DNA of 60,881 bases, the filler included, from Hausera hauseri (Eukaryota), in assembly GCA_046269625.1 (NCBI GenBank). It is 10 parts of 10 records of this genome, joined end to end, with 100 filler letters (N's around TTAATTAATTAA, not from the genome) between each part and the next. Parts side by side here need not be neighbours in the genome. Positions count along the whole stretch, not along the records: positions 39,433 to 47,923 come from JBJURY010625441.1; 9 more parts are not named here. The stretch is one strand, 5' to 3'. Of the stretch, positions 45,921-47,589 are shown one piece after another (position 1 is the first letter of the stretch; each line of letters opens with the position of its first letter). The notes beneath the pieces were generated by a model. It worked only from the letters and a program-made list of their open reading frames with translations, was not told the DNA's origin and made no database searches. A program made the position numbers and the translations under genes.

Positions 45921-46011
45921 ACAGATCCTCACTACAGCATACTGTCACTGCTGCTCTTCCTCTCAGATTCTCCCTTAAACACAAAGTGATGCAGAAACGG
46001 CAGCAACTCAC

Positions 46012-46341
46012 TTCTCCATGGTCCCAAACAGCCACTTGGGCTTTTTGTTGAAGGGCATAACCATTTCATGGAAGCATGCCAGTTTAGTGGCAATCTCAAC
46101 TGAAATGGCAGGATCCGAGAGCTGATCTGTGCGCATGCGAGTATTCTAGGCAAACATGAAAAAGAGACAAAAACTTTTTAATAATGGATCATTTCATCAT
46201 AGATTATGTGTTGTGAATGGAACATACCGGAAGATACTGCTCCAAGCGTCCCTGAGGAAAAACGCCATAAAGTTTTGGACCCAAACTTCGTTCTGCCAGA
46301 ATGGCAAACATCACGCTTTCCAGTACCAGCGAGTCCACACC
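46012..46341 (-). CDS. chkb: Vertebrate (fish-like) choline/ethanolamine kinase beta, two exons (46341-46228 and 46145-46012), gene fragment only
   Basis: The exons encode [38 protein letters not shown] and [45 protein letters not shown]. Canonical AG/GT sites; 114 and 134 bp, the sizes I recall for human CHKB exons 3 and 4; 82-bp intron between them. Absent from the ORF track. Confidence 0.9.
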
Positions 46342-47589
46342 CTAAAGTGAGTAATGCAGAGAAAAGTTAGAGAGACTGGTTTATGGGAATACAGTGACAG
46401 TATTGACAGACAATCCTGGTCAAACATATCCTCTTGACAGGGCCGTGCAGAGACCTCTAAAGGGGCAGGGGCTCAAAGTAAAAAAAGGGCATAAATTGTT
46501 CCGACGGTACCGCATTGTAGGGTGGAACATAAGCATGAATCTCACACACCACTTAAAGTTCCAATAGTAAGCATGGAGAGATGAACCAAATCTAGGGGAA
46601 AATAAAATATTTAACACACATGTTAAATATTAACATGTACATACATGTTAAATATTTCATTTATTTATTTTCACTCTGCAGGACTCCTTTCATTATAGTG
46701 AAGTATTGAGATATTTCAAACCTGCACATGAGCAACATATGTCAAATAGAGAGTTAGACCAGCTGACAGATTTTGATCTTACACACAATCCTCCAAGCAA
46801 AAAGTCTGTATTAGTCACACGATCCAACTAGAGGGGCTGAGAAGAGGACTGTCGACCGCGAGGAAAGCCAGAACTCAGGGCAGAGATAACAGCACCTGCA
46901 GCAGGGAGGAGGATGGGGAGAGGTGGCTAACTTATTTTTAGCAACAGAGCGGGTTGGGAGATGGTTATTTAAATGTATTTATTGTTTTTTTTTTTTTTTT
47001 TTTTTTTTACGTCCCACAGGCTCTGCAACATTAAATAAATTTGATTAGAAAACCTGAATTTGAATACATTTTAAATAAAGCAAGGCATCTATTTTAAACT
47101 AATGTTTCATCATATAGGTAATAACTCTTAGGGTGTTTTATTTGACATCACCATCATAGTGCTGGATTGTGTTGCCATTGTTAAGACAACAGTTTACTTT
47201 AATTACTGAAGTGGTTGAGTAACCATTCATAACATTGCACTGATAACTGACGTACGTTTAAACTTTCACTTTAAGTTATTTTTCCAGCAAAATAGGCATA
47301 AAAGAATTGTCTGATGCTCTTATCTAGAAACGTATTAGCCTTGAGTATAAAGTTGTAGTGGCAAAACAGTTATAAGATTATTTAGGATCTCAAGATATTT
47401 TCAAGCACAATTTTTTAACGGTACTTTCCCTGAAAATAAACAACTGTGACTTAACAAACATTACTCCATTTTCCCGCACAACATTTTAGAATCCATAGAA
47501 GAATTATATTATCGCATTGACAACATGTGGTGTTCACAGGTAGTCAAAGGGTCCTTTTTTCATACATCGATTGATTTATACATCATTTA

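Follow-up and report, generated by a model that had tools for sequence, protein, structure and literature searches.

Fish-type chkb exons joined without a gap to a decayed env-bearing retroelement in the Hausera hauseri assembly: probably a chimera of fish and invertebrate DNA

How did two chkb exons of fish type come to stand directly against an enveloped retroelement in the assembly of Hausera hauseri (GCA_046269625.1): through the integration of vertebrate DNA into an invertebrate genome, or through a chimeric contig, the two origins offered by the initial annotation? The window, i.e., the whole stretch of 60,881 nucleotides that we analysed, consists of ten pieces of 4–12 kb split by nine identical 100-bp artificial linkers (window 4360–55173), each made up of 44 N, a 12-mer, and a further 44 N; one plain 100-N gap is additionally present. 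Because linkers stand between the pieces, neighbouring pieces are not to be read as linked, and findings that span a linker are suspect. Certain repeat families are common to several pieces—21283–25790 with 25891–30449 and 30550–34586, and 30550–34586 with 39433–47923—which sharing points to a single source genome, probably, for the pieces concerned. The piece that carries the chkb fragment (39433–47923; 8,491 bp), flanked by the linkers at 39333–39432 and 47924–48023, is a short unplaced contig.

A run search with 44250–47923 listed a single run, X1, in which 0.69 of the 392 sampled words were present; this result is not proof of absence elsewhere, many runs lying outside the search. No run of fish alone was listed in that search, and X1 may be the source sample itself, and hence not independent. 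The X1 data are contigs, not raw reads, and 2,498 of these records were placed on the whole piece 39433–47923, along with 24 at 97% on 45760–47923, 8 of those 24 being listed. According to the accessible text on the Logan contigs, words seen once are discarded, the graph is simplified, and short isolated contigs are dropped (10.1101/2024.07.30.605881), so that a joint supported by no more than one or two, or very few, reads could be missing from the contigs.

Both exons lie on the minus strand, exon A at 46228–46341 (114 bp) and exon B at 46012–46145 (134 bp), with a GT-AG intron of 82 bp between them (46146–46227); the claim that they are intact and canonically spliced was confirmed, inasmuch as the splice and frame check found AG acceptors, GT donors, and neither a stop nor a frameshift. 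Exon A matched the Pfam family Choline_kinase (PF01633) with E 8.9e-10 (38.8 bits, over the cut-off of 29) and exon B with E 9.5e-6 (25.6 bits, under the cut-off). The protein search with exon B returned 92 matches, all 83 of the named ones being from teleosts (76–91% identical) and the other 9 being without a name; one match bears the label choline kinase alpha, and we take the label choline/ethanolamine kinase to be equivalent to chkb. The exons are adjacent in 87 of the 92 matched proteins. The best match, a percomorph chkb (Micropterus dolomieu, P0004), is identical to the fragment in 75 of 82 residues, whereas the fragment has only those two exons. No species among the listed matches showed the exact exon residues, and the description of the exons as nearly identical to vertebrate CHKB amounts to these 75 of 82 residues at best.

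The 82 residues are further from other fishes than are 70 of the 72 distinct fish sequences, the remaining 2 being further still, and the end of exon B (M81-E82; 46012–46020) was found in 0 of 87 fish proteins. All 8 departures from the majority fish residue fall within the 31 variable columns and none within the 51 nearly invariant ones, which pattern was reproduced in 0.02% of 20,000 trials of a neutral-change simulation. That confinement to variable columns argues for a working gene in a fish absent from the matches, and not for a decaying insert; in view of the M-E ending and of the lack of a listed run of the fish alone, its lineage may be a little-sequenced one. Judged by their sequence, the exons derive, together with some 1.1 kb of surrounding DNA, from the genome of a bony fish.

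Of the intron following exon B only the start is present (45902–46011, minus strand, with a GT donor at 46011), the intron being broken after some 90–110 bp. Upstream, the reported absence of the previous exon in 1.2 kb calls for no particular explanation: from 46438 onward the intron contains the end of a teleost-type repeat, whose presence suffices to account for that absence. The end of this interspersed repeat (46438–46491, plus strand) is 87–89% identical over 37–54 bp to all three metagenome loci that were found by pattern (L001–L003), whose observed/expected CpG ratios (CpG o/e) are 0.29–0.47, the value for 46438–46984 being 0.40; locus L003 carries an exon that is presumably that of a vertebrate GPAT3/4, although neither Pfam nor the Atlas gave a match for it. 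The interior of the repeat (46659–46930) is represented in X1 by further, differing copies—five contigs have variant letters at 46807, one has five differences at 46855–46930, and one ends loosely at 46659—and the short frames within it had no Pfam match. These extra copies, together with the likeness of the repeat end to vertebrate-like contigs, indicate that the run contains more fish-type DNA than this fragment.

To the left of the fish-type DNA lies a decayed Ty3/gypsy retroelement (39433–45901, minus strand) with env upstream of pol, which copy is full of stops, has a longest open frame of 140 codons, and is cut within its RNase H by the end of the piece. Remnants of a reverse transcriptase (RT) and an RNase H (39480–40756, minus strand) were confirmed in that order by Pfam and by tblastn to env-pol proteins. 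Upstream of them, tblastn detected an env-like remnant (41798–42424, minus strand) related to class III/gB-type fusion proteins, with E 1.2e-6 to a PF24664-positive frame at 3337–4074 and E 2.4e-9 to residues 372–466 of P0282, though with no direct match in Pfam; open frames at 43407–44072, a candidate gag region, had neither a Pfam match nor any likeness to P0282. The relatives P0282 and P0268 contain PF24664, protease, RT, and RNase H in that order by Pfam. As to P0282 itself, NCBI gives this env-protease-RT-RNase H-integrase polyprotein of 2,627 aa the label of a Flavobacteriaceae bin protein, although it is likely an animal retroelement that contaminates the bin. The frame at 3337–4074 (first piece, plus strand, 245 aa) matches a Monjiviricetes-type fusion protein (PF24664, E 4.9e-17) and probably represents a second, less decayed env-bearing family.

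A second copy of the flanking element, 73–79% identical, occurs at 30934–34257 on the piece 30550–34586; CpG transitions between the two copies (62/143) exceed those of the GpC control (39/130) by a small margin only. Long exact X1 matches cover the element, the summed depth of the family reaching 12,253, and the best identities of its RT are 29–43% among 150 listed relatives, so that the family is very abundant and without close relatives among those 150. Ten RT matches that we looked up comprised three with plausible labels (sponge, pseudoscorpion, and spider), one with a bacterial-bin label, and six without a name, none being from a fish; an RT word search gave no match. The CpG o/e is 1.09 in 39433–45901 and 1.07 in the second copy versus 0.46 in 45902–47589 (P 8e-8). 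In the accessible part of PMC13524379, the order GAG-ENV-POL with a gB-type env is described from Nematoda, Bryozoa, and Platyhelminthes, and that part reports no homologous intact elements in vertebrates. The present copy shares with those errantiviruses of HSV/gB-type envelope an env-like region that precedes RT and RNase H but, unlike the elements described there, is broken throughout, and both of its ends are missing from the piece. These features suggest that the host of the retroelement is likely an invertebrate, non-fish genome.

The joint between this element and the fish-type DNA has no N gap, as had been stated. Its position, placed earlier near 45920, does fall within the zone of the left break (45901–45929), but X1 puts the break at 45901/45902 and the composition switches at 45917–45929. 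A 313-bp X1 contig matches 45760–45901 with 0 differences and then continues with 38 letters that match nothing in 45760–47923. A de Bruijn contig normally stops where a second path branches off. The unbroken passage of this contig beyond 45901 into other letters makes the join likelier to be an artefact than a gene transfer. The table of X1 joints on 45760–47923 was empty and thus lists no link between 45901 and the right flank, and none of the 8 listed records of the 24 bridges either joint. No match to the retroelement was found right of 45901, so that the element is not taken up again beyond the fish DNA. Exact X1 matches at 46117–46375, 46352–46579, 47081–47376, 47394–47584, and 47647–47912 establish that fish DNA is present in the run, and we give no weight to the holes at 45902–46116, 46855–47080 (48 letters skipped), 47377–47393, and part of 47585–47646, since records can be left out of the listing.

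The right boundary is less sharply defined. Markov scores of three orders, trained on the small sets of 5.7 kb of fish-like loci versus six other pieces, delimit a fish-like segment from 45917–45929 to 46950–46983, after which a run of 24 T (46985–47008, plus strand), skipped in the placement of the X1 contigs, would be a candidate for the right joint. There follows an AT-rich stretch (47009–47589) whose CpG o/e is 0.43 and then 0.79 and whose Markov score is neutral to invertebrate-like, the first half being CpG-poor and the second invertebrate-like by score; a 24-bp likeness of 47522–47546 to the 13-bp satellite is weak (E 0.1). A pair of 12-bp inverted repeats around the exons was set aside as chance, 192 of 300 shuffles showing one.

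A decayed Tc1/mariner of the DD37D/maT type is represented at 47590–47923 (minus strand) by its 3′ end, of which 334 bp are on the piece. Its D codons at 47915 and 47800 are 37 codons plus a 1-nt shift apart, and we take this two-aspartate motif to be the DD37D catalytic motif. The spacing of the last two aspartates and the TA before the terminal CAG are those of DD37D/maT elements, though here only the 3′ part, with a frameshift and in-frame stops, remains, and one end is seen. The statement that a Tc1/mariner end bounds the other side of the fish DNA therefore stands insofar as a TA-CAG end does start at 47590, but the fish-like composition has already ended at 46950–46983. The accessible parts of PMC9777934 place DD37D/maT mainly in invertebrates, and features of the mariner family are given in those of PMC8472432 and PMC7093834. 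Elsewhere in the window, 24480–25560 (minus strand) contains a further mariner-type element, not related to this one, whose motif is of the same type.

Taken as a whole, we regard it as highly probable that the piece is chimeric, composed of invertebrate repeats and of fish DNA that was sequenced along with them; its parts are ordinary, and the gapless join is likely no genuine feature. Fish DNA in the same sample would have been joined to repeat DNA when the library was prepared or the contigs were assembled, the animal likely being a fast-evolving invertebrate that would live on fish or eat them, for which a parasitic flatworm or a nematode would fit. X1 would then contain fish DNA genome-wide at low depth. 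The left joint may have formed in a purine stretch of low complexity that borders the very-high-copy repeat family, and the right one either at the 24-T run or between that run and the mariner end. Undecayed exons between flanking elements filled with stops indicate that the fish DNA has not aged together with its neighbours, and a simple insertion would require the element to resume right of the fish DNA, which it does not do; the single listed run and the short unplaced piece point in the same direction. Against a chimera, two joints within 1.1–1.7 kb would be needed if the mariner end is of invertebrate origin, and the X1 contig that runs on into other letters could stem from the other haplotype or from a second, almost identical copy of the element. 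As regards the marks of a germ-line transfer, we found neither a resumed recipient sequence, nor occurrence in more than one sample, nor decay or compositional drift. A fish origin of the exons and a non-fish origin of the retroelement are both supported, and of the alternatives posed at the beginning the chimera is favoured, while integration is left unsupported by the other continuation, the undecayed exons, the lack of resumption, and the single run.

Host DNA in data from parasites is a known cause of spurious transfer claims. Claims of salmonid-, mouse-, and fish-to-schistosome transfer are listed as disproved or contested in the accessible text of PMC13155389, and the refuted cases had in common with the present one a fresh vertebrate sequence in an invertebrate data set, a single source, and host DNA at hand; in those cases suspicion fell on carrier DNA of a library, whereas here an intron-bearing genomic fragment is joined to repeats within a contig. 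The part of PMC7310846 available to us describes the screening of a fish-parasite assembly for host-type matches. No comparable case was found in the portions consulted of the mostly non-subscription literature on transfer from teleost hosts to parasites. If an artefact, the locus is of value for quality control only, in that fish DNA is likely fused inside invertebrate contigs of this set of short pieces, where filters acting on whole contigs would miss it; if the joint were true, it would be a rare documented instance of single-copy vertebrate genomic DNA in an invertebrate chromosome, earlier claims of which are contested in the same accessible text (PMC13155389).

The alternative that survives best, while in our opinion improbable, is a very recent capture, on one haplotype and before fixation, of 1.1–1.7 kb of host fish DNA, with its introns and its repeat, fused into the enveloped retroelement, for example through the repair of a break in which DNA of host tissue or blood took the place of the 5′ part of an old copy of the retroelement. 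Apparently non-fish DNA on both sides of the fish DNA, the seamless joints, and the other continuation in X1, which could be the empty haplotype, all favour such a capture. In simulations that assumed 100- or 150-base reads, both joints went unbridged in 0.1–0.4% of runs at a depth of 6–7, and in simulations of the same type at a word depth of 2.5–3 they did so in 9–36%, so that the gaps in X1 are compatible with an allele at half dose. Contigs of the retroelement side had depths of 4.5–8.8 versus 2.56–4.5 further right (P 0.005), a contrast that is not proof, as it derives from 8 of about 2,530 and 8 of 24 records with one figure per contig, two of the four low values lying in 47009–47589; moreover, the depths of contigs right of the T run (2.9 and 3.9) are no greater than those of the exon contigs (2.56 and 4.5), so that depth does not separate those two sides. 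Standing against the capture, the exons are without decay, so that the event must have been very young; the lack of resumption and of any listed X1 link between 45901 and the right flank would demand an extra deletion or rearrangement; the other copies of the fish-type repeat in X1 constitute a ready source of contamination; and a single run was listed.

The two readings that remain are contradicted by the data. According to one, which we consider barely tenable, the whole piece would be fish DNA, the retroelement having inserted into, or recombined with, an intron of a fish chkb; in its favour are the gapless joint and the RT without a close named relative (29–43% among the 150 listed), by which the host is not fixed. 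The CpG o/e of both decayed copies (1.09 and 1.07), next to 0.46, tells against it, as do the env-before-pol order, which the accessible part of PMC13524379 reports from Nematoda, Bryozoa, and Platyhelminthes, with no homologous intact elements in vertebrates, the sponge, pseudoscorpion, and spider among the RT matches with no fish, and the sharing of repeats between the retroelement family and the pieces at 21283–34586; an insertion would, furthermore, put an LTR at the joint, whereas the break here is inside the element. The least credible reading of all, an old, fixed transfer of the chkb fragment into an invertebrate genome with the mariner inserted later, would suit the mariner end, whose flanking TA is preserved right where the AT-rich stretch stops, and the divergence of the 82 residues with their private M81 and E82, yet the differences avoid conserved columns as in a working gene even though only two exons are present, the CpG content is still vertebrate-like, X1 shows another continuation, and the mariner is decayed but the exons are not.

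As for the remaining pieces, the rest of the window had been called invertebrate-looking on account of a divergent MBTPS1 with tiny introns (16588–18572, minus strand), and this gene is indeed not of fish, but it provides no evidence by linkage, as it lies on a separate piece (16414–21182) beyond linkers. It is 68–69% identical to fish proteins that are 98–99% identical among themselves, and its branch in the tree is very long (1.55 changes per column) and of unsure place, the nearest by path being Macrostomum; the 120 listed matches included no close named relative. The top match, P0096 (77% over half of the query), was rejected as a parasite relative, since it is a normal sturgeon protein that contains an internal duplication. 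In viral contigs a 16-mer was matched 3 times and a 20-mer not at all, and the Atlas searches gave no match. The piece 48024–55073, with a CpG o/e of 0.06 (48001–49000) and 0.25 (51001–52000), a 127-bp tandem repeat, and no repeat common to the others, may come from another organism. A satellite with a 13-bp unit in about 823 copies (71% matches) extends over 5977–16313. Finally, related remnants of DNA polymerase B at 18939–19867 and 36646–39155, on separate pieces and 72% identical, matching PF03175 and with a RING-finger frame nearby, are presumably of a Polinton/Maverick-like element.
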